Shown here one piece after another: positions 13,961-28,796 of a stretch of 40,525 nt of DNA. The DNA comes from a virus (taxonomy: Duplodnaviria > Heunggongvirae > Uroviricota > Caudoviricetes), in IMG/VR virus record IMGVR_UViG_2734482565_000012, one strand, 5' to 3'. Positions within the stretch are counted from its first letter, which is position 1. Each line of letters opens with the position of its first letter. Both the position numbers and the translations under genes were made by a program. Under the pieces are notes generated by a model. That model worked only from the letters and a program-made list of their open reading frames with translations. It was not told where the DNA came from and did no database searches.

Positions 13961-15271
13961 TTAAATCCGAAGTGATGTGACTCTTCCGGTCGGTTTGACA
14001 ATAGGGAATTGCTTAACGATGAAATAACCTCCGGCATCATTCGGGTGATCATTGCCAGATTTTTTATCAGGCTCCCCCTTCTCATCCCAGACCTGTTGCT
14101 CCAGAGATTCGGCATATAACGGGCAACGCTTCACATTAACTTTATAGCGACGCTCACCATTGGCATTGCAGAACATTGCATTCATTGAGTTAACGCGATC
14201 TTTTACTGGCGGGTTCGAGCTGTTCACCACAACGTTAAAACCAGCCTGCTTAAGCTGGGCTATATCCGTCGTACTTGCGTTACTTGATTTTCTGGAATCC
14301 CCGGAAGCATCTGGATAAATATAAATTTCCCTCACTTTCCGGTAATCATTCCCATCATACAGCCAGAAGCGTTCTTTAATGATGCGGATCATATCCGGCG
14401 TATCGTAGGCATTGATGATTTCAGTTACCGCACATGGAAGCCCCAAACGCAGCACATGGACGATTCCCGCCATCTTTCCAACGTTAAAATCCATCCCAAT
14501 ATAAATCGGCTCCCCTGGCTGCTCCACTTCTTCGCAATTATTCAGTTTCCGGTCAAACTGATGGTAAACAGTACCACTTGTCAGGTTAGTAAACTGTCCT
14601 CGAAGATAGGCTTTAATCAGCTCTGGAGGGTATGATTCAAGAAGCGAAGGAATGTAATCTGCTGGCAGGTTCTTTTCATTATCGAAAGTAGATGCCTGCA
14701 CCAGACCATACAGTGAGGCCAGCTCTGTTTTTTCACGCACGGCTTTAACAAACTGCTCGTAGACAAATTTGAATCCTTCCGGCGTGGTTGTAACGTCAAT
14801 ACCGTTGCGAAGTCCATCAATCTTATAACGCATACGTGCAATTATCTTGCGCCACGCCGTTCTGGCTTTTTCCTTCGGCAAAATGTCCAGTTCATCCACC
14901 AACGCATTACCAATTTTGAAACCGACGATCGTTTGTGGCTTCTCCATCGATCTGCAGATAGTGGTTCCCCGATACTGGCGTCCGTAATAAAAGTGAACCT
15001 CTTTATTTCCCTCATTAATTTTTACGTTCAATCCCCAGTCAGCAGCAACTTCTTCCACTGTAGGGTAAAAAATATCGCGAATTTGGGGATACGTTGGCGC
15101 AAAATATCCCTGATTTATACCTGGATGCTCCCAAATCCCCTTGCATATGCCGCCACACCCAACCCATGTTTTGCCCGAGCCAAAACCAGCAATATAGGCT
15201 TTAAATTTATGGGGCATTGAAAGAAATCGCGCCTGAGGCACATTAAGCGTCGGAGAGATCATCTTCATCAC
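13961..15271 (-). CDS. terminase large subunit
   Basis: 436 aa; Walker A-like AGFGSGKTW near the N-terminus; acidic nuclease-type C-terminal half; overlaps TerS stop. Confidence 0.9.
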   Translation of the reverse strand: MMKMISPTLNVPQARFLSMPHKFKAYIAGFGSGKTWVGCGGICKGIWEHPGINQGYFAPTYPQIRDIFYPTVEEVAADWGLNVKINEGNKEVHFYYGRQYRGTTICRSMEKPQTIVGFKIGNALVDELDILPKEKARTAWRKIIARMRYKIDGLRNGIDVTTTPEGFKFVYEQFVKAVREKTELASLYGLVQASTFDNEKNLPADYIPSLLESYPPELIKAYLRGQFTNLTSGTVYHQFDRKLNNCEEVEQPGEPIYIGMDFNVGKMAGIVHVLRLGLPCAVTEIINAYDTPDMIRIIKERFWLYDGNDYRKVREIYIYPDASGDSRKSSNASTTDIAQLKQAGFNVVVNSSNPPVKDRVNSMNAMFCNANGERRYKVNVKRCPLYAESLEQQVWDEKGEPDKKSGNDHPNDAGGYFIVKQFPIVKPTGRVTSLRI

Positions 15272-16337
15272 TCCTTACTCTGGCATCAACCACATTAATA
15301 TTGATCGCCACAGGCTGGGGATGTTCATTATCTTCCACCGTTTCGATCTCTTTGCGCAGCTTCTGGTTTTCCATTCTGCGCCGTTCAATTTCCAGTTCCC
15401 GTAGCCGCTTATCTGCACATAAAGCCCCGCCAGCAGAAAACAAACGCAACAATTCACGCCGGGCGGCAGCCTTATCCTCCAGCAGGATCTCAACGCCGAA
15501 TTTTCCGAATTTTGCCCCTGCATATAATTGCCGCGCATCCCCATCAAGCAGAGTGGTATCAGCCATATAAAGCTGTCCCGTTCCCTCACCGCAGCACTTC
15601 GGGCAGTCCGGATTGGGTATGGCGTTATCAACAAAGCCGAGGCCTCCATATTCCGGTTCGGGTTTGCCATCTCTGGAAGCCTGCGCCGCTGCCTTGTCGA
15701 ATTCTGCTATATCGCGCCACTGGTAGAGATGATTCTCGCCCCAGCAATAACGGCAGTTAACACGGCGAAATTGTGCAAGCTGATTGGGGTCGGCCAGGAC
15801 AATAGCCATCAACTGACTCACTAGTAAATCCAGGTCTGCGGTATAGCGTTTCTGGTACTGATTGCGGAAGTAGCTGATAGCGCGAAAAACCCTGGCATTT
15901 CTAAGCATACGACTGGCGTTGCTGTTAGCTGTCGCACCTTGCCCCTCATAACCGGCTAGTCGGTACGCCTCTGTCGGCTTTTTACCCTGAGCAACAAGCA
16001 TCGCAAACTTAGCCTGCTGGTCAGAAATGCCGAATTCATCGGGACAGAACGAAAATTCCTCCGCGTCGCCCTCATTCAGGCCCGCATCGAATACTGGCTT
16101 TTTTTCCTGAGATTTTTCGTTCCGCTTTTGTGCAGTCTGCGCAGATTTTTTCTGCGCACTTTTTTGCGCAGTTTTGCACATTTCTGTCTGCGCATTTTTC
16201 GGAGTTTTTTTGATGTAACGACGGGCTGTTGCGTAATTCAGTCCCCTTGCTTCACACCATGCCACCGGAGATATACCGGAGCGGGTGTATTCAGCAATAT
16301 ACTCCTGCTGCAACGCCCCCCAGTCCGGTCTGCTCAT
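15243..16337 (-). CDS. terminase small subunit (HTH N-terminus, Terminase_2-like core, Cys-rich C-terminus)
   Basis: 364 aa; segment KFAMLVAQGKKPTEAYRLAGYEGQGATANSNASRMLRNARV resembles the TerS family signature as recalled; directly upstream of TerL. Confidence 0.7.
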   Translation of the reverse strand: MSRPDWGALQQEYIAEYTRSGISPVAWCEARGLNYATARRYIKKTPKNAQTEMCKTAQKSAQKKSAQTAQKRNEKSQEKKPVFDAGLNEGDAEEFSFCPDEFGISDQQAKFAMLVAQGKKPTEAYRLAGYEGQGATANSNASRMLRNARVFRAISYFRNQYQKRYTADLDLLVSQLMAIVLADPNQLAQFRRVNCRYCWGENHLYQWRDIAEFDKAAAQASRDGKPEPEYGGLGFVDNAIPNPDCPKCCGEGTGQLYMADTTLLDGDARQLYAGAKFGKFGVEILLEDKAAARRELLRLFSAGGALCADKRLRELEIERRRMENQKLRKEIETVEDNEHPQPVAININVVDARVRSDEDDLSDA

Positions 16338-16340
16338 CAG

Positions 16341-16592
16341 TTAGTCCTGATTTTTATCCACCCTGAGTAGTTCGCGCAGAGCAAAGGCATCCCCTTTTCT
16401 GGCAAGCTTAAACAATGCCGCTCGTAACTCGGCTTCACCTTTCGCTCTGCCCTTACGGATGGCCGCATAAAAATCTGTCATTGCTTCCCGATTTTCTTTC
16501 AGTCGGTTCAGATCAACATCCAGAACGTCAGCGATTTGTTGTGCAGTCATCCGGCACGCTGCCAGAGACTCGACTTTCGAATACGGAATCAT
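16341..16592 (-). CDS. small HTH-like protein upstream of terminase (function unknown)
   Basis: 83 aa (..MTAQQIADVLDVDLNRLKENREAMTDFYAAIRKGRAKGEAELRAAL..); overlaps the end of the upstream ORF, so the true start may be internal. Confidence 0.4.
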   Translation of the reverse strand: MIPYSKVESLAACRMTAQQIADVLDVDLNRLKENREAMTDFYAAIRKGRAKGEAELRAALFKLARKGDAFALRELLRVDKNQD

Positions 16593-17478
16593 TTGTCACC
16601 CCCATTGATATGCAGGGTGTCTTCTTCCTGTATTTTTCGTGAAGGATTTTTACTGCAGCGTTGTTCCAGGTGACCTGATGGTGAATGCGTTTATGACTGG
16701 CACCCATAAGTGAGATTTTTACGCACGACGGCGCATACATGACGGAGTAAAAACTTTTAACGTAGGTTCCGGAATCCAGATACAGCTCGGTCATTCCGCC
16801 GCTGTTTTTCTGCGTCTGTTTCTGCCCTAACTGGACAGCACCGATCGTCATAAACAATTCACCACAGCGACCGAGATTCGTGTACGTATTCACATCCTCG
16901 TTAATGCGCCCCATGAATGAGAACGGTCGATCAACCGAACAGATAAAGCTGTTCATTGCCTTGCGTTTCACCCACGAAGCATGGCCGCCATTGTCACCAA
17001 GAAAATCCCCGCCCTGCGACATAGCGATGGAAAGAGCAGGTATTGATTCGTAGTACGCAAGCATTTCAGAAAGGATCTCATCCAGTTTCCTTATCGGGAA
17101 ATAGGCCTGGTCATAGTTGCGATCCACCCGAAACTGGAACTCGTGATAATCATCATCGAGCTGAATGAAGTATTTACACCCGACCAGTTTTGCCTGGTCG
17201 AAACAGGCATTACGGGCGTAAAAAATTGAGCGGCGGTCACTAAAATTATCGGCTTCGTCAAAACGACTAGCAATATCGGCTTTGGAAAATACCAGCACCT
17301 GTTCACCAAATTCAGCCATGTACTGATGCCGTGTCTTATCTTCATCATCAACAACGATAAAAATTTTCCCGGTATAGCCAGCACGACGCAACGTCCGGTA
17401 AGTCAGAACTTTGTCCGGTCGCCCGTGAGTCAGAATAAAGGCGCAAAAATCATCACGCATATTCCTCCTCCCCGCCAT
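16528..17478 (-). CDS. hypothetical protein with GT-A-fold glycosyltransferase-like motifs
   Basis: 316 aa; N-terminal FCAFILTHGRPD, then IFIVVDDEDKT, then QLDDDY (DxD-like) at GT2-like spacing; no predicted TM segment. Assignment is by motif only. Confidence 0.45.
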   Translation of the reverse strand: MAGRRNMRDDFCAFILTHGRPDKVLTYRTLRRAGYTGKIFIVVDDEDKTRHQYMAEFGEQVLVFSKADIASRFDEADNFSDRRSIFYARNACFDQAKLVGCKYFIQLDDDYHEFQFRVDRNYDQAYFPIRKLDEILSEMLAYYESIPALSIAMSQGGDFLGDNGGHASWVKRKAMNSFICSVDRPFSFMGRINEDVNTYTNLGRCGELFMTIGAVQLGQKQTQKNSGGMTELYLDSGTYVKSFYSVMYAPSCVKISLMGASHKRIHHQVTWNNAAVKILHEKYRKKTPCISMGVTNDSVFESRVSGSVPDDCTTNR

Positions 17479-18241
17479 GCATGATCTCCACCATGCGCTG
17501 CGTCATTCGGACAAATCCATTTTCAATAGCCTGCTGATAATCAATGATCACCAGCGCCGACTCCTCGAAAAGGCACTGAATTTCAGCGGGGGCATGAGCG
17601 TAATAGTCCGCAATTCTGCTGAAATTAAACACCGTGTGACGTTCTGCTGCACACAGGAGGAATTTCTCAATATCAGGATCAAGGGACGCCGAACGTATCC
17701 GGCTGATCAGCTCCTGAGTTTTCGTATCGTCGTACAGTTCACTGATATCCGGTTTACCGCCTGACGGCTCATAAACAGGCGTATCAATTTTCGTCGTATA
17801 CGGCTCCTCCTCATTTCCTGTACCGGGCAAAACATCCGTCAACAGTTCATCAATTTCTGCCGGGATGAAGCCTGTCAGGGAGACATCAAAATCAGCATTG
17901 ATTAGGTCCGACAGCTCCATCCGCAACAGATCTTCATCCCAGCCAGCATTCATCGGCAGGCGATTATCTGCCAGGCGGTACGCCTTTTTCTGCTCATCCG
18001 TCAGGCCAGACAGAACAATGACCGGAACAGAATCCATTTTGAGCATTTCAGCCGCCATAACACGACCGTGACCCGCAATAATTTCGCCCTTTTCGTCAAT
18101 CAGCACCGGATTAGTCCAGCCGAATTGCTTAATACTTTCTACCAGTTGTGCCACCTGCTCAGTACTGTGCGTCCTGGCGTTGTGCGCATACGGTGACAAT
18201 TCTTGTAATGGGCGATAGACTATCTTTAATTTCTCGCTCAT
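17453..18241 (-). CDS. ParB N-terminal (ParB/Srx nuclease-like) domain protein
   Basis: 262 aa; KIVYRPLQELSPYAHNARTHS..NPVLID..GEIIAGHGRVMAA is the ParB-like nuclease-domain signature; acidic C-terminal half. Confidence 0.85.
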   Translation of the reverse strand: MSEKLKIVYRPLQELSPYAHNARTHSTEQVAQLVESIKQFGWTNPVLIDEKGEIIAGHGRVMAAEMLKMDSVPVIVLSGLTDEQKKAYRLADNRLPMNAGWDEDLLRMELSDLINADFDVSLTGFIPAEIDELLTDVLPGTGNEEEPYTTKIDTPVYEPSGGKPDISELYDDTKTQELISRIRSASLDPDIEKFLLCAAERHTVFNFSRIADYYAHAPAEIQCLFEESALVIIDYQQAIENGFVRMTQRMVEIMHGGEEEYA

Positions 18242-18378
18242 ACAGCCTTGCTTTATGAATAAAACGCACCCCAGCAGCCAGTGCTACTGGGGGCGGAGGT
18301 GTTGCTGGTAAAGTTAGGTATTGGATCAATGAGTGAGTCAACATAATATTAAACTCACAATTATAAATCAGCCATATA

Positions 18379-19836
18379 TTAGGAGCGCCAAAAAAAACCT
18401 GAAAACAATATAATAACAGGATAAATTTCAAGGCGACCAAGAATCATAGCTATGCACATTAAATATTTTGCAATGTCATTAAGCACTCCGAATGACGATG
18501 CAGTAGCCCCAAAACCTAATCCCATATTATTAATACATGCAGCCACTGTTGCAAATGATGTAAGAAAATCATATCCCATACCATTTAACACCAGTATAAA
18601 AAACACCGTGAAGAGAGTATAAAGAAAAAAGAAACTCCATACAGACCTCATTACACGATCTGTAACTATCTTCCCTCCTACATTTACACTCAACAACGCT
18701 CTGGGATGAGAAAGCTGATTTATCTCGTGTTTGCTTTGTTTGAAAAGTATAAGAAATCGAAGTGACTTAATTCCACCACAGGTTGAACCTATACATCCCC
18801 CAAAGAAACTTGACAACAGCAAAAACACTATCGTGTGCGTGGGCCAGTTTGCATAATCCTGCGTAGCTAAACCATTATCAGTGAGCATGGAGCTGGCAAG
18901 AAAAAACGAATGAATAAAACTTCCATGCAAGTCATACATACCTATATGCCAGACCTGGAAAGAGGTAACAATGATCACCCCTAAGGCTATTAACAGAAAG
19001 AAACGAAGTTCAATATCTCTGATTAAAGGTTTTATCGTTTTTCTGCTAATAACAATATACCAAAGAGTGAAGTTGAAAGCCGATAGCAGGGAAAAAGAAC
19101 CAGCCACCAGCTCAACCAAATAGTTATTAAAATATCCGATACTCTCGCTATGAGTTGAGAAACCACCAAGCGAAACTGTGGAAATCCCGTGACAAATAGC
19201 ATCAAACAAAGGCATTCCTGCAAGTCTATAACAGACAATACAAGCAATACCTAATAAAGAATAAGTTATCCACAGTGTCCGTGACGTATCGGCCAGGCGG
19301 GGAGTGAGTTTGTCATCCTTAAATGGCCCCGGCATTTCTGACTGATAAAGCTTTGCACCACCAATACCCAATAATGGCAATACTGCAACCGCCAGAACAA
19401 TAACTCCTAAACCACCTATAAAATTTAACTGTGACCGATAGTACAAATATGCCCGAGGTAATGAACTAACATCATCAATTACAGTTGCTCCTGTTGTTGT
19501 TATTCCAGAAACCCCTTCAAACAGAGCATCAATGAACGTTAAATTAAGTTCTGAGTCAATCCATAAAGGGAATGCACTAATAACAGAAAACAAAATCCAA
19601 AACATTACAATTATAATAAACCCATCACGGGTACGTAATTGAATGCCAGATTTCTTAGTTGTATACCACGCTCCGCCACCAATGCAAAAAAATATAACGA
19701 AAGTTATAAAGAAAACGAACAGGCTTTTTTCTTTATAAAACAATGCTACAACCATTGGTGGCAACATTGAAAGACTATAGAGCCAAACCAGGAACCCACA
19801 CATATGAGTAACAACTCTTACATGAGATGTATTCAT
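18379..19836 (-). CDS. trkG: TrkG potassium uptake protein (Trk/Ktr family membrane subunit)
   Basis: 485 aa from MNTSHVRVVTHMCGFLVWLYSL.. (ORF track starts 6 codons earlier); near-identical to Rac-encoded TrkG of E. coli as recalled; AT-rich codon usage; multi-pass membrane protein. Confidence 0.9.
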   Translation of the reverse strand: MNTSHVRVVTHMCGFLVWLYSLSMLPPMVVALFYKEKSLFVFFITFVIFFCIGGGAWYTTKKSGIQLRTRDGFIIIVMFWILFSVISAFPLWIDSELNLTFIDALFEGVSGITTTGATVIDDVSSLPRAYLYYRSQLNFIGGLGVIVLAVAVLPLLGIGGAKLYQSEMPGPFKDDKLTPRLADTSRTLWITYSLLGIACIVCYRLAGMPLFDAICHGISTVSLGGFSTHSESIGYFNNYLVELVAGSFSLLSAFNFTLWYIVISRKTIKPLIRDIELRFFLLIALGVIIVTSFQVWHIGMYDLHGSFIHSFFLASSMLTDNGLATQDYANWPTHTIVFLLLSSFFGGCIGSTCGGIKSLRFLILFKQSKHEINQLSHPRALLSVNVGGKIVTDRVMRSVWSFFFLYTLFTVFFILVLNGMGYDFLTSFATVAACINNMGLGFGATASSFGVLNDIAKYLMCIAMILGRLEIYPVIILFSGFFWRS

Positions 19837-19973
19837 ATCTAAATATTCTTTCAATTATAACCACCTTGCTGCAATATTATGATTATACTGTATAAAATTT
19901 AACTCCTCTTAGATCTTACTTCACTGTTCCTTATGAAACAATCATCAAAATGAATCATATTGTAGTTAAGATT

Positions 19974-20438
19974 TTACTTTAAACACTGCTCGGTTATGTA
20001 TTGCTGAGCACCTTCAAGTTGGGCCTGCATCATTACCAGTCGTTCCCGGAGGGTGAAATAATCCCGTTCAGCGGTGTCTGCCAGTCGGGGGGAGGCTGCA
20101 TTATCCACGCCGGAGGCGGTGGTGGCTTCACGCACTGACTGACAGACTGCTTTGATGTGCAACCGACGACGACCAGCGGCAACATCATCACGCAGAGCAT
20201 CATTTTCAGCTTTCGCATCAGCTAACTCCTTCGTGTATTTTGCATCGAGCGCAGCAACATCACGCTGACGCATCTGCATGTCAGTAATTGCCGCGTTCGC
20301 CAGCTTCAGTTCTCTGGCATTTTTGTCGCGCTGGGCTTTGTAGGTAATGGCGTTATCACGGTAATGATTAACAGCCCATGACAGGCAGACGATGATGCAG
20401 ATAACCAGAGCGGAGATAATCGCGGTTACTCTGTTCAT
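19974..20438 (-). CDS. rzpR: i-spanin Rz
   Basis: N-terminal TM ([18 protein letters not shown]) followed by coiled-coil; immediately after the endolysin gene; start placed at MNRVTAII. Confidence 0.8.
20033..20218 (-). CDS. rzoR: o-spanin Rz1, embedded in Rz in the +1 frame
   Basis: 61 aa; lipobox LVVVGC; proline-rich ([15 protein letters not shown]); fully nested within Rz. Confidence 0.75.
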
Positions 20439-21398: not shown

Positions 21399-21794
21399 CT
21401 AACCTCGCATGTCAAAGCCAGATTTCTGAAAATCTCTGTAGACTTCCGGATTGTTGAAGGCCGGAAATTTGGCTTTATGAGCTGCGGACTTTATCGCTTC
21501 GCAATAGGCTTTATCACCGTTACTGGTAGATATTTTTAACGCCGTGCCATCCTGAGAGAATTCCATATGCAACCTGCATTTTTTCCCTTTCCAGTTATGC
21601 GGCTCATCAAGTTTGGCATTAATTGCAGCTCTGATTCCCCGCGCTTGCGCCCCCCATTCATCCTGATCATCCCAGCGTCCTGAACTGCAACTACCTGTAG
21701 CAGTAGTTTTGTGGCAATCTGAAGGGTGTAAAGGTGTGCATCCCGCAACAAAACCGACCCAAAAAGTCAACATAACGATTTTCTTTAATCCCAC
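21399..21794 (-). CDS. lipoprotein with TolA C-terminal (domain III)-like domain, paralog 1
   Basis: 131 aa; signal peptide plus lipobox FVAGC, +2 Thr; C-terminal ..KGKKCRLHMEFSQDGTALKISTSNGDKAYCEAIKSAAHKAKFPAFNNPEVYRDFQ.. matches the TolA C-terminal pattern. Confidence 0.7.
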   Translation of the reverse strand: MGLKKIVMLTFWVGFVAGCTPLHPSDCHKTTATGSCSSGRWDDQDEWGAQARGIRAAINAKLDEPHNWKGKKCRLHMEFSQDGTALKISTSNGDKAYCEAIKSAAHKAKFPAFNNPEVYRDFQKSGFDMRG

Positions 21795-21944: not shown

Positions 21945-22373
21945 TCAGGGTTTAAAATCCAGCACCCCATTTTGAAATACTTTATATACTTCCGGCGAAG
22001 GGGGGGCAGGTATATCAGCATTCTTTATCGCATTCATCGCTTCACGACATAAATCGAGGTCTCCACTTTCTCTTTTAACCTCCAGTAGAAGGCCATTCGG
22101 GGCCATATGCATTCTCAGTGTACACTCTTTTCCTGAATACTTACTCGCATCCCCGAACTGTTTTTCGATGGCGCTCTTGATTTGATGGGCATACAGACGG
22201 ATATCCTCACTAACATCAGAAGTACGTTCAGATGAACTCACATACTGTGTCTCTATTGCTTTATCGGAGTAATATGATGTACGGTCATGATAATTTGTCG
22301 ATACAGCATCAGTGCACCCGATAATAATCCCACTAATAATCAACGTAAGAATTGATGCGCTACGAAAACCCAT
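21945..22373 (-). CDS. lipoprotein with TolA C-terminal (domain III)-like domain, paralog 2
   Basis: 142 aa; lipobox IIIGC, +2 Thr; C-terminal ..YAHQIKSAIEKQFGDASKYSGKECTLRMHMAPNGLLLEVKRESGDLDLCREAMNAIKNADIPAPPSPEVYKVFQNGVLDFKP closely parallels the E. coli TolA C-terminus as recalled (..AGQIKSAIESKFYDASSYAGKTCTLRIKLAPDGMLLDIKPEGGDPALC..VYEVFKNAPLDFKP). Confidence 0.75.
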   Translation of the reverse strand: MGFRSASILTLIISGIIIGCTDAVSTNYHDRTSYYSDKAIETQYVSSSERTSDVSEDIRLYAHQIKSAIEKQFGDASKYSGKECTLRMHMAPNGLLLEVKRESGDLDLCREAMNAIKNADIPAPPSPEVYKVFQNGVLDFKP

Positions 22374-26618: not shown

Positions 26619-27620
26619 TTAGTAATCTGCGTGTTTCGCACTTTTCAGAAATGCTTTCATATTTTCATTAGGTCGCTCAATTTCGAAGTTACTTCCATAT
26701 AACTCTTGTAATTTTGGCCATAACTTACTTAATAACCCTCTCCTGCGATAAAATGGATGTATCCAAACGGTAGATAGGTACGGAGAATTTGCATTTGAAT
26801 TGTTTATTGTGACCAGCCCAACTAAACATTGTCGATAACCACTATTATCCATTGATTGTATTTCTTCGACGAATGGATACGCGATTACATCAGTCCAACC
26901 ATGATCGGTTGTATCCCATTGCATTCCGTCATGACATTCCTTCGACTGATAGCGGCGTAAAGCTACACACGCGAGCTTTTGCCAATCTGGAGAATTAATT
27001 GTGATCTCTTCATCGTATGACGCGCCTATTGGAGCGGGTATTGGTCTGATTAATCCAGCATGGCATTCATCATAGAACTTCATGTTTCCCTCAGAAACGT
27101 TGTGTACGTTGGGTTGCTCCATGTGTGCGCCATTCAAAAATAGCTCTGATAGTAGTGTATCTACACTGTAATCTTTATTGATTATTGTCGGCTTAGAGTT
27201 TTTCTTATTAAGGCCGCGAGTAACGATTTTTTGATCAATGTTAACAACATGGAATAATCCGTCGGGGAGGCTAGCGAACCACGATGGGGCATCGGACCAG
27301 AATAGCATGCCTTTTGTACTTCTTAAGAGTTTAATTAAGTTAATACAAGCTTCTTCACTAGTCTTGCCGTTGATGCGAAGTATGTTAGGACTAAAGTAAT
27401 ATTCATCCATATCAGGGAATGCAGCTTCGCAAAACTCCTGTACATAATTTAGCACCTGGATTCTACAGAGATCATCATAGCTGGTAATAACTAAGGGGGT
27501 ATCTTCATTACTATTATGATTATCAATAATGCAATCTATAGCGAGACTTACTGCTTTGCGTATCACTTCAGTTGAATCTAACGACTCTAAAAATTTTGTC
27601 TTTCGTGTGCGAATATCCAT
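26619..27620 (-). CDS. hypothetical protein B of AT-rich two-gene cassette (C-terminal GNAT-like motif)
   Basis: 333 aa; start 15 nt after the stop of gene A; C-terminal ..GYRQCLVGLVTIN..YLSTVWIHPFYRRRGLLSKLWPKLQEL.. resembles GNAT motif A; AT-rich codon usage; no resemblance to core lambdoid genes. Confidence 0.65.
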   Translation of the reverse strand: MDIRTRKTKFLESLDSTEVIRKAVSLAIDCIIDNHNSNEDTPLVITSYDDLCRIQVLNYVQEFCEAAFPDMDEYYFSPNILRINGKTSEEACINLIKLLRSTKGMLFWSDAPSWFASLPDGLFHVVNIDQKIVTRGLNKKNSKPTIINKDYSVDTLLSELFLNGAHMEQPNVHNVSEGNMKFYDECHAGLIRPIPAPIGASYDEEITINSPDWQKLACVALRRYQSKECHDGMQWDTTDHGWTDVIAYPFVEEIQSMDNSGYRQCLVGLVTINNSNANSPYLSTVWIHPFYRRRGLLSKLWPKLQELYGSNFEIERPNENMKAFLKSAKHADY

Positions 27621-27635
27621 GTATGACCTGCGCTA

Positions 27636-28658
27636 TTAAAATTCATGAATGAACGGTTTGTCATCTGGTTGCAAAATGGTGGTTTTATTCGTTGCTACAT
27701 TTAAACTGTTGTAGAGCATAATTGCCAGGTTCGATGCATTTTCAATCAGCGTTTCAAGATCCTGGTCTGTAATCACTACGAGGTTCCCTTCTTTATCCTT
27801 TCCACCACGATGCACTAAGTGATTTCGATTGAGGGTTGCCAATTCAATAGCTTCTATCGGACAGTCTTTTTGTACTTTTATATCGAATGTAGCTTCATAG
27901 CGGTCGATTACCTTTTTAGTGCTATGCCAGCTTGCACTGATCAAGTGTTCCTTGATTGACCTGATTAGCTCTCCCCTAATTTTCTCGATGGGTTCACCCT
28001 TGAAAGGCAACGCAGCAATATCTTTGCTTACTTTAAATTCAGTCTTACCTTTTTCTATACAATTGGCTATGTAGACATCATCTTTCTCTATAGAATTAAT
28101 GAATAGCTCAACATAAAGCGTTTCCAAAGCTGTAATAACATTCGTGTAGAGCAAACTAAGCAAGTGGTTTTTTTGCTGTTGTTCAGTTTTATCTTTTGCA
28201 AGTTTTTTTATTTTATCGATATTATCAATGAATTTTAAATACGGATTACCGGAAGACGTTACAGCGTCGTAGATATCATCATCGTACCAATCATCTATAT
28301 TATTTGAGTTTCCAGACCAGTCAAAACATTGTGTTTGTAATTCATCTACTAATTCCTCAATATACTCAGATTTAACATATTGACCGAAGATGGATTGTAG
28401 TTCTTCGCTCGCATCATACGGCCCGCCATATATGTAAGCATAGCCACCTTCTCTACTTTCATACGGACAAGCATTTGCCGGATCTTCAAAGTTTTCAAAG
28501 AACCAGTTTTTCATTACTTCGAGTTGATCTTTTTTGCTTATGTATTTTAAAGATTTTAGTGGAACTTTCTTTCCATTAACCTCGAAAACAATTTTCACGA
28601 TGTAACGCTCCCTTGTATCAATTGCGCAACTATTATACCACAGCGAAATACAGGGCAT
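27636..28658 (-). CDS. hypothetical protein A of AT-rich two-gene cassette (C-terminal HEPN-like R-x4-H motif)
   Basis: 340 aa from MPCISLWYNS with AAGGAGG SD (ORF track start 28727 is upstream of the SD); C-terminal ..AIELATLNRNHLVHRGGKD.. has RN-x3-H spacing; acidic N-terminal region. Confidence 0.65.
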   Translation of the reverse strand: MPCISLWYNSCAIDTRERYIVKIVFEVNGKKVPLKSLKYISKKDQLEVMKNWFFENFEDPANACPYESREGGYAYIYGGPYDASEELQSIFGQYVKSEYIEELVDELQTQCFDWSGNSNNIDDWYDDDIYDAVTSSGNPYLKFIDNIDKIKKLAKDKTEQQQKNHLLSLLYTNVITALETLYVELFINSIEKDDVYIANCIEKGKTEFKVSKDIAALPFKGEPIEKIRGELIRSIKEHLISASWHSTKKVIDRYEATFDIKVQKDCPIEAIELATLNRNHLVHRGGKDKEGNLVVITDQDLETLIENASNLAIMLYNSLNVATNKTTILQPDDKPFIHEF

Positions 28659-28688
28659 AACCTGCCTCCTTAAACTAACATACCATGA

Positions 28689-28712
28689 GCCAGCAATGTC
28701 CGCTATTGGCAC
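28689..28712. promoter_or_regulatory. perfect 7-bp inverted repeat immediately upstream of cassette gene A
   Basis: gtccgct-attggcacaa-agcggac about 30 nt upstream of the SD of gene A; a TTGACA hexamer lies a further about 40 nt upstream on the minus strand. Confidence 0.3.
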
Positions 28713-28796
28713 AAAGCGGACAACCACGCTAGCTCTCCCCTGTGCCAGAAAAATGTCAATTTACATATGAACTAATGCTCTTTGATCTAGTAACGT

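Follow-up and report, generated by a model that had tools for sequence, protein, structure and literature searches.

A ParB-fold protein and a TAGT-family glycosyltransferase form a conserved gene pair in an Escherichia coli Rac-family prophage and diverse viruses: a candidate DNA glycosylation module

What would a glycosyltransferase do beside a ParB-like protein, close to the terminase genes of a phage? This question is raised by the virus record IMGVR_UViG_2734482565_000012 (Caudoviricetes), a stretch of 40,525 nucleotides that is referred to here as the window and that contains an intact Rac-family lambdoid prophage of E. coli. Two genes in the window are of interest: ynaK, which encodes a 262-amino-acid (aa) protein with a ParB-like N-terminal domain, and the gene that follows it, which encodes a transferase of the TAGT (TET-associated glycosyltransferase) family. 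A sequence-only reading of the locus had picked out both open reading frames (ORFs) on the minus strand and had raised glycosylation of DNA or nucleotides as a possible role; the ORF list confirms the position of both. Results from homology searches, described below, indicate that the two genes travel together through viruses of very different hosts. The YnaK–TAGT pair is tentatively read here as a partner-activated, post-replicative DNA glycosyltransferase that may shield the phage genome from host nucleases.

The association of the two genes extends well beyond E. coli. A tblastn search with the transferase against 50,697 phage records (E <= 1e-3) matched 40 records, including Nocardia phage NTR1 (46% identity), T4-like Vibrio phages of 191 kb (44%), Lactobacillus gasseri phage phi jlb1 (43%), the archaeal Haloarcula virus HHTV-2 (43%), L. 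delbrueckii phages c5, LL-Ku and phiLdb (40%) and Porphyromonas phages (27%). A ParB-like gene lies immediately 5' of the transferase gene, with overlapping frames, in phi jlb1, c5, HHTV-2, NTR1 and a Porphyromonas phage, and terminase genes come after the pair in the bacterial phages of this set (phi jlb1, c5, NTR1 and the Porphyromonas phage). A wider sample comprised 164 loci with a TAGT protein at least 40% identical to the transferase, including 80 loci on viral contigs and 80 in species-representative genomes, the latter belonging to Proteobacteria, Bacteroidota, Firmicutes, Verrucomicrobiota, Kiritimatiellia, Acidobacteriota, Planctomycetota, the candidate phyla radiation (CPR), Methanosphaera and an uncultured archaeon. 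A YnaK-like ORF is located upstream on the same strand in 162 of the 164 loci, mostly with an overlap of 4–41 nt, and in the two exceptions the transferase gene starts no more than 62 nt from the end of the contig. Reverse searches from YnaK homologues again find TAGT adjacent. Furthermore, the pairwise divergence of YnaK is correlated with that of the transferase (Mantel r 0.49, a value reached in 0 of 999 permutations). The adjacency of ynaK and the TAGT gene is thus far beyond chance.

The composition of the partner was probed with domain-specific hidden Markov models on the same 164 loci. The N- and C-terminal domains are fused in 146 loci and split over two ORFs in 2; the C-terminal part occurs by itself in 12 loci and the N-terminal part by itself in 2, and the remaining 2 loci are those that lack a partner at a contig edge. 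At least five of the loci with the C-terminal part alone have ample upstream DNA, indicating that they are not artefacts of truncation. The T4-like Vibrio phages show the arrangement as well, as only a 139-aa protein that corresponds to the C-terminal part (E 2e-47) is encoded ahead of the transferase. Consequently, the constant companion of this TAGT clade is the motif YTxKIxxPxYEP together with the C-terminal domain of the partner, and the ParB domain is frequent yet dispensable. One of these Vibrio phages, pv27 (OR413349, 191 kb), carries the C-domain-only partner and the transferase among replication genes, and its annotation also lists a PurZ-like '2-aminooxy adenylosuccinate synthetase', a possible sign of 2-aminoadenine in its DNA.

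The surroundings of the pair are less constant than the pair itself. The large terminase subunit (TerL) encoded downstream belongs to at least four families (Terminase_6N, T7-type, GpA-type and TerL_ATPase), and in the T4-like Vibrio phage the pair lies among primase, exonuclease and helicase genes, away from the terminase; the unit is therefore the pair rather than a terminase context. In small phages the module is located between RusA or HNH genes and the terminase. When all ORFs within 6 kb were clustered for 105 diverse loci, the only neighbours to recur were terminase genes, an SSB and small proteins of unknown function. Natural fusions of ParB and TAGT proteins were sought as Rosetta-stone evidence, and only two doubtful chimeras were found (P0081, P0364). 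The nearest T4-like clade, represented by Aeromonas phage 65, shares 23% identity with the transferase and has no partner gene. Several further observations were made at individual loci. In L. delbrueckii phages including Ld17, LL-Ku and Ld25A, the transferase match is in two pieces or only 14–63% of it is left, a pattern that suggests loss or inactivation of the module is compatible with phage viability. Four gut-phage loci (L165–L168) contain an additional 350-aa GT2 glycosyltransferase about 1.4–1.8 kb upstream of the ParB–TAGT pair, and one metagenomic phage (L180, positions 17837–20316) has three or four small GT2 genes directly after the capsid gene.

The transferase itself is a soluble GT-A glycosyltransferase whose catalytic motifs are intact. 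The sequence-only reading had proposed a GT-A-type enzyme from the strings FILTHGRPD, IVVDDEDKT and QLDDDY, which are present at residues 14, 41 and 106, and profile searches, which might have placed the protein in a family other than the glycosyltransferases, returned Pfam PF20691 (TAGT) at 118.8 bits (cut-off 27.5; E 4.1e-34). The match spans residues 14–228 and profile positions 4–205 of 205. The TAGT family was reportedly defined by Iyer et al. in 2013. PHROG 842, whose label is beta-glucosyl-hydroxymethylcytosine (HMC) alpha-glucosyltransferase, is matched at 8e-104, and RefSeq names the transferase 'GREB1-related protein'. The structure prediction that had been suggested for this protein was carried out with AlphaFold2 (AF2) and Foldseek and yielded GT-A glycosyltransferases as the best matches. 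The AF2 model, built on a shallow alignment, has a mean predicted local distance difference test (pLDDT) score of 66.7, with values above 90 in the N-terminal half. All Foldseek matches in the PDB at E <= 0.001 are GT-A glycosyltransferases (GalS1, COLGALT1, LARGE1, LH3 and SpsA), SunS and glycogenin sit just under that line, and weaker matches are to other nucleotide-sugar enzymes, namely ADP-glucose and UDP-GlcNAc pyrophosphorylases, RmlA and a cytidylyltransferase. A search of PDB chains with the transferase sequence gave no match.

Conservation within the family is concentrated at the expected active site. In alignments of 33 and 34 sequences that reach down to 39% identity, R20, D47, D108, N193, D195, H266 and H267 are invariant and a GGMT motif is at least 90% conserved. 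The 33-sequence alignment shows no variation at Asp109 and Asp110, and the 34-sequence alignment keeps each of them at 90% or more. Glu194 is at least 90% conserved in the closer alignment and remains the consensus in the wider alignment. Residues R20, DDD108–110 and E194–D195 fit the R…DDD…ED active-site pattern found in phage DNA GT-A enzymes and in the base-J glucosyltransferase JGT (10.1101/2023.12.21.572611). The protein is mildly basic (median pI 8.7 in the family) and contains no segment that resembles a transmembrane (TM) helix, as the maximum Kyte-Doolittle mean over 19 residues is 1.08. The absence of a TM segment, together with the absence of gtrA and gtrC neighbours, upholds the earlier statement that this is not a GtrB-type membrane enzyme. 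The length first given for the protein, 316 aa, corresponds to an existing ORF; the start most likely used is the ATG at 17460, which gives 310 aa. The sequence GGAGGAGG lies ahead of this start, ATGCGTGA is where the start overlaps the ynaK stop (an overlap of 8 nt), and homologues of the transferase begin MRDDFCAF, each of which favours the shorter protein. Some relatives of the transferase are fused to a class-I S-adenosylmethionine (SAM) methyltransferase, to a sulfotransferase_2 domain or to a second TAGT domain (P0128, P0132, P0165, P0170, P0146, P0148), which suggests that methylated, sulfated or two-sugar glycans are made in some viruses.

The ParB N-terminal signature that had been noticed in the 262-aa protein is borne out by matches to PHROG 620, 'ParB-like partition protein' (1.7e-90), and to Pfam ParB_N (PF02195; residues 23–90, E 8.7e-7), the latter at 29.3 bits and barely over the cut-off of 26.3. 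RefSeq names the gene ynaK, for a 'ParB/Srx family N-terminal domain-containing protein', profile and fold comparisons both place YnaK in the ParB-CTPase/Srx fold superfamily, and by sequence it matches only ParB N domains among PDB chains. The word 'nuclease' in the earlier description comes solely from a former Pfam name for this domain, and nothing here indicates nuclease activity. Among 51 partners, down to 28% identity, the Box II sequence AGHGR has an invariant G57 and an R60 that is at least 90% conserved, and two further residues of the nucleoside triphosphate (NTP) pocket are kept, N21 being invariant and N93 (in ADN) at least 90% conserved. The conservation of Box II, N21 and N93 makes NTP binding by YnaK plausible.

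The remainder of YnaK is distinctive. The AF2 model (pLDDT 81.8) has a low-confidence linker at residues 138–160, which is predicted to be flexible, and a confident helical domain at residues 165–240. The linker carries the family consensus YTxKIxxPxYEP; among 150 distinct partners, 97% retain Y148, P155 and Y157. The C-terminal domain matched nothing in Pfam, in PDB sequences or by fold. YnaK is acidic (pI 4.5, net charge -24), and the pI of the C-terminal domain is 4.05–5.02 across the family. No match resembling a helix-turn-helix (HTH) was found in residues 140–262. The TIGR00180 score of YnaK is 38.1 bits, below the cut-off of 58.45, and no ParA was found in the prophage by RefSeq annotation or by Pfam searches of ten other ORFs, parS sites not having been searched for. 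With TIGR00180 under its cut-off and neither an HTH nor ParA found, identification of YnaK as a partition protein of the ParABS type was rejected. In RefSeq, ynaK of NZ_CP058571 is called a 258-nt pseudogene 'missing C-terminus'. The identical DNA contains the intact 262-aa ORF, and the call is probably an artefact of the truncated 87-aa reference protein of E. coli K-12.

The closest relatives of the YnaK N-terminal domain are found in DNA-modifying enzymes. Residues 3–144 can be aligned to the ParB domain at the N-terminus of phage DNA methyltransferases (phrog_498, 6e-51) and to that of the PADLOC family 'Type II methyltransferase' (MTase_II, 1.5e-38). A tblastn search with YnaK matched 496 phage records; the best matches other than self, at 50–56% identity, are annotated DNA methyltransferases, as are most of the rows listed. 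The methyltransferase-type ParB domain is the only PADLOC match obtained, and searches of PADLOC and NCBIfam assigned neither protein to a known defence or anti-defence family. No functional study was found in the searchable literature on ynaK, on TAGT with ParB or on HHTV-2 with ParB.

Based on these results, a mechanism can be outlined for the YnaK–TAGT pair. The ynaK and TAGT genes would encode the two subunits of one enzyme module. Their transcription would be late, with the genes arranged as Q-like antiterminator, lysis cassette, trkG moron, ynaK, TAGT, terS and terL. The TAGT protein would be the catalyst, a GT-A enzyme of the DxD type that takes a nucleotide-sugar from the host pool, and YnaK would be its obligate partner, with the acidic C-terminal domain and Tyr-rich linker serving to bind and activate, or to position, the transferase. 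The ParB/Srx N-terminal domain may function as an NTP-binding module that couples the enzyme to double-stranded DNA. The product would be phage DNA that is modified with sugar after replication and before or during packaging, and the modified genome would be shielded from host nucleases. What the analysis shows directly is which domains the two proteins contain, that the catalytic motifs are intact, that the genes are almost always paired and are inherited together, and that no hydroxymethylation pathway was found in the genomes sampled. The use of DNA as acceptor, activation of the transferase by YnaK, late expression and protection of the genome are proposed features of the module.

Several lines of evidence argue for this mechanism. 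The idea of DNA glycosylation is strengthened by the near-obligate pairing across bacterial and archaeal viruses, by the proximity of the YnaK ParB domain to the N-termini of phage DNA methyltransferases and by the ParB-like activator that has been shown experimentally for phage thymine dioxygenases (PMC13229309). An enzyme that is 40–60% identical in viruses of E. coli, Lactobacillus, Bacteroides and Haloarcula argues for an acceptor that is a universal polymer, and the DNA-handling genes that neighbour the module argue for a link to DNA. Moreover, the phage TAGT and GT-A enzymes that have been characterised all act on DNA (PMC13216743, PMC13390438, 10.1101/2023.12.21.572611).

The ParB-dependent thymine dioxygenases are the closest experimentally grounded analogue of the YnaK–TAGT pair. 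ParB176, which lacks a DNA-binding domain, is required for 5mYOX176 to oxidise thymine in double-stranded DNA, and clades of phage thymine dioxygenases that depend on a partner and clades that do not both exist (PMC13229309). As in that system, a cognate ParB-like gene adjoins the enzyme gene and is conserved in relatives, here in 162 of 164 loci, and YnaK, like ParB176, keeps an N-terminal domain of the NTP-binding type and a C-terminal domain with no recognisable DNA-binding domain. The split among the dioxygenases is mirrored by the YnaK-linked TAGT clade and the partner-less type of Aeromonas phage 65. In contrast to 5mYOX176, the enzyme studied here is a GT-A glycosyltransferase and not an Fe/2-oxoglutarate dioxygenase, so that the pair would be a functional analogue of the system and is not a member of it. 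The C-terminal domain of YnaK also differs from that of ParB176 in being acidic and helical, in its Tyr-rich motif and in its ability to occur without the ParB domain, and no downstream hypermodification genes (kinase, AADT) are present here.

Other systems combine ParB-like proteins with enzymes that act on DNA. In the 7-deazaguanine DNA modification system, the ParB-like NTPase DpdB is required for the action of DpdA on DNA; this is a bacterial defence-type system in which the chemistry is a transglycosylation with preQ0. The ParB–methyltransferase fusions (phrog_498, MTase_II; PMC12704722) carry an N-terminal ParB domain like that of YnaK. Their catalyst is a fused methyltransferase, whereas the pair described here has a separate glycosyltransferase and a different domain C-terminal to ParB. 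Later authors credit Iyer et al. (2013) with the proposal that, as DNA is packaged, modification enzymes are brought to it by ParB proteins (PMC8256090, PMC13229309).

The most demanding question for the proposed mechanism is the chemical group on DNA that would receive the sugar. No TET/5mYOX enzyme, C5-methyltransferase, ThyA-like hydroxymethylase or alpha- or beta-glucosyltransferase was found in the window (Pfam searches of ten other ORFs and RefSeq annotation), in the complete genome of phage c5 (31.8 kb) or in seven Pfam-annotated neighbourhoods of 16–21 kb, and no hydroxymethylase is annotated in the 163 kb covered of the 191-kb genome of Vibrio phage pv27. The association with TET/JBP (5mYOX) enzymes that gave the TAGT family its name is likewise not seen in the window, in c5 or in the seven neighbourhoods, and it is not needed for membership of the family. 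With no source of hydroxymethyl pyrimidine, the acceptor would be a canonical or host-modified base or another group on DNA. It is possible, though doubtful, that the pair places sugar directly on DNA free of hydroxymethylated pyrimidines, with a canonical base, a host-methylated base or some other DNA group as the acceptor.

Several points weigh against DNA as the acceptor. We know of no DNA glycosyltransferase that acts on an unmodified base; to our knowledge, all those that have been characterised target a hydroxyl (5-hydroxymethylcytosine (5hmC), 5-hydroxymethyluracil (5hmU), 5-hydroxy-C or an attached sugar), and phage DNA glycosylation is known to us only as a final step that follows creation of a pyrimidine hydroxyl. 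Both domains of YnaK are strongly acidic and no HTH was found, which makes direct DNA binding unlikely, and the C-domain-only partners of some phages indicate that the ParB domain is not essential. The C-terminal half of the AF2 model of the transferase is of too low confidence to show an acceptor site (pLDDT below 50 over much of residues 160–316). The near-invariant tyrosines of the YnaK linker could serve to accept the sugar and not to dock the enzyme. Finally, GREB1, a eukaryotic protein with a TAGT domain, has been reported to glycosylate a protein (PMC7968844).

The last two points lead to the strongest rival explanation, in which YnaK itself receives the sugar from the transferase, on Tyr or Thr of YTxKIxxPxYEP and in a glycogenin-like way, or a different phage protein does so. 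The glycan would subsequently be built up by additional glycosyltransferases, methyltransferases or sulfotransferases. This explanation is unlikely on the present evidence, and it does account for several results. The motif lies in the segment predicted to be flexible, its Y148, P155 and Y157 are the residues kept in 97% of partners, and the C-terminal part accompanies the enzyme even when the ParB domain is missing. The partner is acidic and does not look like a DNA-binding protein, and a target encoded by the virus itself would explain conservation over very different hosts. The relatives fused to a SAM methyltransferase, a sulfotransferase or a second TAGT domain, the GT2 genes found nearby (in one case behind the capsid gene), the report of GREB1 as a protein O-GlcNAc transferase (PMC7968844) and the presence of glycogenin among the weaker fold matches point the same way. 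Against a protein acceptor, it is hard to see what purpose glycosylation of a ParB-like protein would serve, the nearest relatives of its N-terminal domain are the DNA methyltransferase fusions, and the neighbours of the module handle DNA and are not virion genes. The characterised phage TAGT and GT-A enzymes all use DNA, and a docking or activating role would account for the motif equally well.

A small-molecule target is improbable. Here, the pair would glycosylate a nucleotide or signalling molecule, for example to blunt a host defence, with the ParB/Srx domain acting as the fold members Srx, SerK and SbnI do, by binding the substrate or phosphorylating it. The conserved NTP-binding Arg of Box II fits this idea, as does the binding of CTP, ATP or GTP by the fold according to lineage (PMC12704722). 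However, partners with the C-terminal domain alone indicate that the NTP-binding domain is dispensable, the TAGT family offers no precedent, and PADLOC returned nothing besides the methyltransferase-type ParB domain.

The remaining explanations are each contradicted by specific results. TarP and GtrB are prophage enzymes that modify cell-surface glycans, and a GT-A enzyme carried by a prophage might similarly act in lysogenic conversion or superinfection exclusion by adding sugar to lipopolysaccharide, teichoic acid or another surface glycan. TarP is also the reported best PDB match of other phage GT-A enzymes (10.1101/2023.12.21.572611). Envelope modification is nevertheless very unlikely for the transferase described here. 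Unlike the GtrB/GtrABC seroconversion enzymes, it has no TM segment and no gtrA/gtrC-type neighbours, and its gene lies in the late operon after the lysis genes rather than in a moron expressed in lysogeny. Enzymes of 40–60% identity occur in viruses of Gram-negative bacteria, Gram-positive bacteria, CPR and haloarchaea, which have no surface polymer in common, and the enzyme is also present in virulent phages (c5 and the T4-like Vibrio phages). An obligate partner of the ParB type would be left unexplained.

Action on 5hmC or 5hmU, either as a T2/T6-like beta-glucosyl-HMC alpha-glucosyltransferase or downstream of TET/5mYOX, is suggested by the PHROG 842 name (8e-104) and by the TET association after which the Pfam family is named, and it is scarcely credible for this clade. 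The dCMP or dUMP hydroxymethylase, TET/5mYOX, C5-methyltransferase and alpha- or beta-glucosyltransferase that would provide or accompany such a substrate were not found in the window, in c5 or in the sampled neighbourhoods. T2-, T4- and T6-like Escherichia phages are not among the 40 records matched by the transferase in tblastn (E <= 1e-3), and a second tblastn search by way of the Aeromonas phage 65 homologue again failed to retrieve T-even phages; the Aeromonas phage 65 type, which represents the nearest T4-like clade, is itself remote in sequence and without a partner. As no hydroxymethylation pathway was found in the sampled genomes, the PHROG 842 label appears to be an over-annotation for the YnaK-linked clade.

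Comparison with the enzymes that do act on such bases leads to the same distinction. The beta-glucosyl-HMC alpha-glucosyltransferase of T2 and T6 is the biochemically known TAGT (PMC13216743, PMC13390438), and it shares PF20691, the GT-A fold and, on the reading favoured here, the post-replicative attachment of sugar to DNA. In T-even phages a second glucose is attached to glucosyl-5hmC, which is itself made by way of dCMP hydroxymethylase and an alpha-glucosyltransferase, genes that were not found here, and the T-even enzyme has no partner of the ParB type. Similarly, the phage GT-A enzymes associated with 5mYOX/TET, JGT and GREB1 resemble the transferase in their GT-A fold, R…DDD…ED pattern, solubility and phage origin, while the 5mYOX-linked enzymes and JGT receive 5hmC or 5hmU from a neighbouring dioxygenase and no dioxygenase was found here.

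That the two genes are functionally unrelated, YnaK being a ParB for partition or for assistance in packaging, or else a nuclease, and the transferase an independent cargo, is almost certainly wrong: ParB-type genes without TAGT do precede terminase genes in other phages, for example in Vibrio phage phi 2, but the pair occurs in 162 of 164 loci with constant order and overlapping frames, next to at least four TerL families and at terminase-free sites, the two proteins diverge in a correlated manner, the C-terminal domain of the partner is found only with TAGT, and the TIGR00180 score (38 against 58 bits) and the lack of ParA and an HTH do not fit a partition protein.

The features of the locus are collected in the table below. 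RefSeq annotation of an identical prophage copy gives the gene order as recE, recT, kilR, sieB, ydaS–V, a Q-like DUF1133 gene, the lysis genes essD, rrrD and rzpD, trkG, ynaK, the gene for the 'GREB1-related protein', a small ORF, terS, terL and portal, after which genes continue to the tail gene J. The Q-like gene through the tail genes are all on the minus strand of the window. The 2-kb region at 16300–18300 is 100% identical to several complete genomes; it is matched in 1600 of 5426 complete E. coli genomes (about 29%), and at least 80% of the query is present in 867 of them (16%). Many E. coli database entries join N-terminal pieces of the transferase or of YnaK to fragments of Lom, tail-fibre, peptidase or terminase proteins, and these chimeras reflect decayed Rac prophages, the K-12 copy included.

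Table. Positions in the window of ynaK, the transferase gene and adjacent features
Feature	Position	Strand	Evidence
ynaK, 262-aa ParB/Srx-fold partner	17453..18241	-	ORF, Pfam ParB_N, PHROG 620, RefSeq name
YnaK N-terminal ParB-CTPase/Srx-fold domain, residues 1-137	17831..18241	-	
YnaK linker motif PYTTKIDTPVYEPS, residues 147-160	17762..17803	-	low pLDDT over residues 138-153, conservation
YnaK C-terminal acidic helical domain, residues about 161-250	17492..17761	-	
TAGT-family GT-A glycosyltransferase, 310 aa from likely start	16528..17460	-	Pfam PF20691, PHROG 842, AF2/Foldseek
Longest transferase ORF, 316 aa	16528..17478	-	
DDD (residues 108-110, 316-aa numbering), DxD metal/nucleotide-sugar motif of GT-A enzymes	17149..17157	-	
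83-aa ORF between transferase and TerS	16341..16592	-	RefSeq version 69 aa
Terminase small subunit TerS	15243-16337	-	Pfam Terminase_2, PHROGs
Terminase large subunit TerL	13961-15271	-	Pfam Terminase_6N + Terminase_6C, PHROGs
G+C-rich terminator-like hairpin with T-run, between trkG and ynaK	18269..18292	-	

The sequence-only reading had placed the pair just upstream of the terminase genes. The position is correct, with the qualification that the 83-aa ORF intervenes before TerS and overlaps the 3' end of the transferase gene. This ORF matches only the middle of the 319-position TerS family phrog_309 (8e-23) and is followed by a full TerS, so it could be a remnant of TerS or a small packaging accessory protein; neighbourhood clustering indicates that it is no conserved part of the module. 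On the other side of ynaK, the hairpin probably ends the transcript of the trkG moron, and an antiterminated late transcript would read through it. The trkG gene, which encodes a potassium transporter (18379–19854, minus strand; Pfam TrkH, 1e-144), is a low-GC moron (GC 0.36–0.41) located between the lysis cassette and ynaK.

Two other regions of the prophage carry possible cargo. Two small genes lie directly upstream of the holin gene on the minus strand (21399–21794 and 21945–22373), and RefSeq names their copies in an identical prophage 'TolA C-terminal domain-containing protein' and tolA fragment; these two genes may mimic TolA, with possible relevance to the exclusion of Tol-dependent phages or colicins. 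In the early region, a low-GC pair on the minus strand (26619–27620 and 27636–28727; 333 and 363 aa) is frameshifted in some genomes and gives only sub-threshold Pfam matches (GNAT; HEPN/RES N-terminal domain 1), and it may be defence or toxin cargo.

Parts of this picture are already known. Both gene families have names, ParB-type cofactors of DNA-modifying enzymes have been described, and orphan phage GT-A and TAGT genes are on record. Leaving Iyer et al. (2013) aside, three elements were not found in the searchable literature: the tie between this TAGT clade and a YnaK-type partner in virtually all genomes, the acidic C-terminal domain and Tyr-rich motif as the invariant element of that partner, and the occurrence of the module alone, without a hydroxymethylation pathway. 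Two surveys have left many 'solitary' phage glycosyltransferases without a pathway unexplained (PMC13216743; 10.1101/2023.12.21.572611). One large and conserved clade of these enzymes is not really solitary, as it has a YnaK-type partner throughout, and the pair is a defined two-gene unit that is native to E. coli and can be cloned there.

If DNA is the target, sugar on hydroxymethyl-free DNA would be a new DNA-modification chemistry, with the YnaK C-terminal domain as its specificity or activation subunit. Such a modification would add a new layer to the contest between phages and restriction, would influence the way in which type IV enzymes and sequencing chemistries read the DNA of lambdoid prophages, and might provide a new tool for DNA labelling. 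If the partner protein is the target, the pair would represent a new kind of phage glycoprotein system. Either outcome would provide a role for ynaK, which is so far an unexplained part of the Rac prophage in E. coli K-12, and would point to a wider role of ParB-fold proteins as cofactors of DNA-modifying enzymes.

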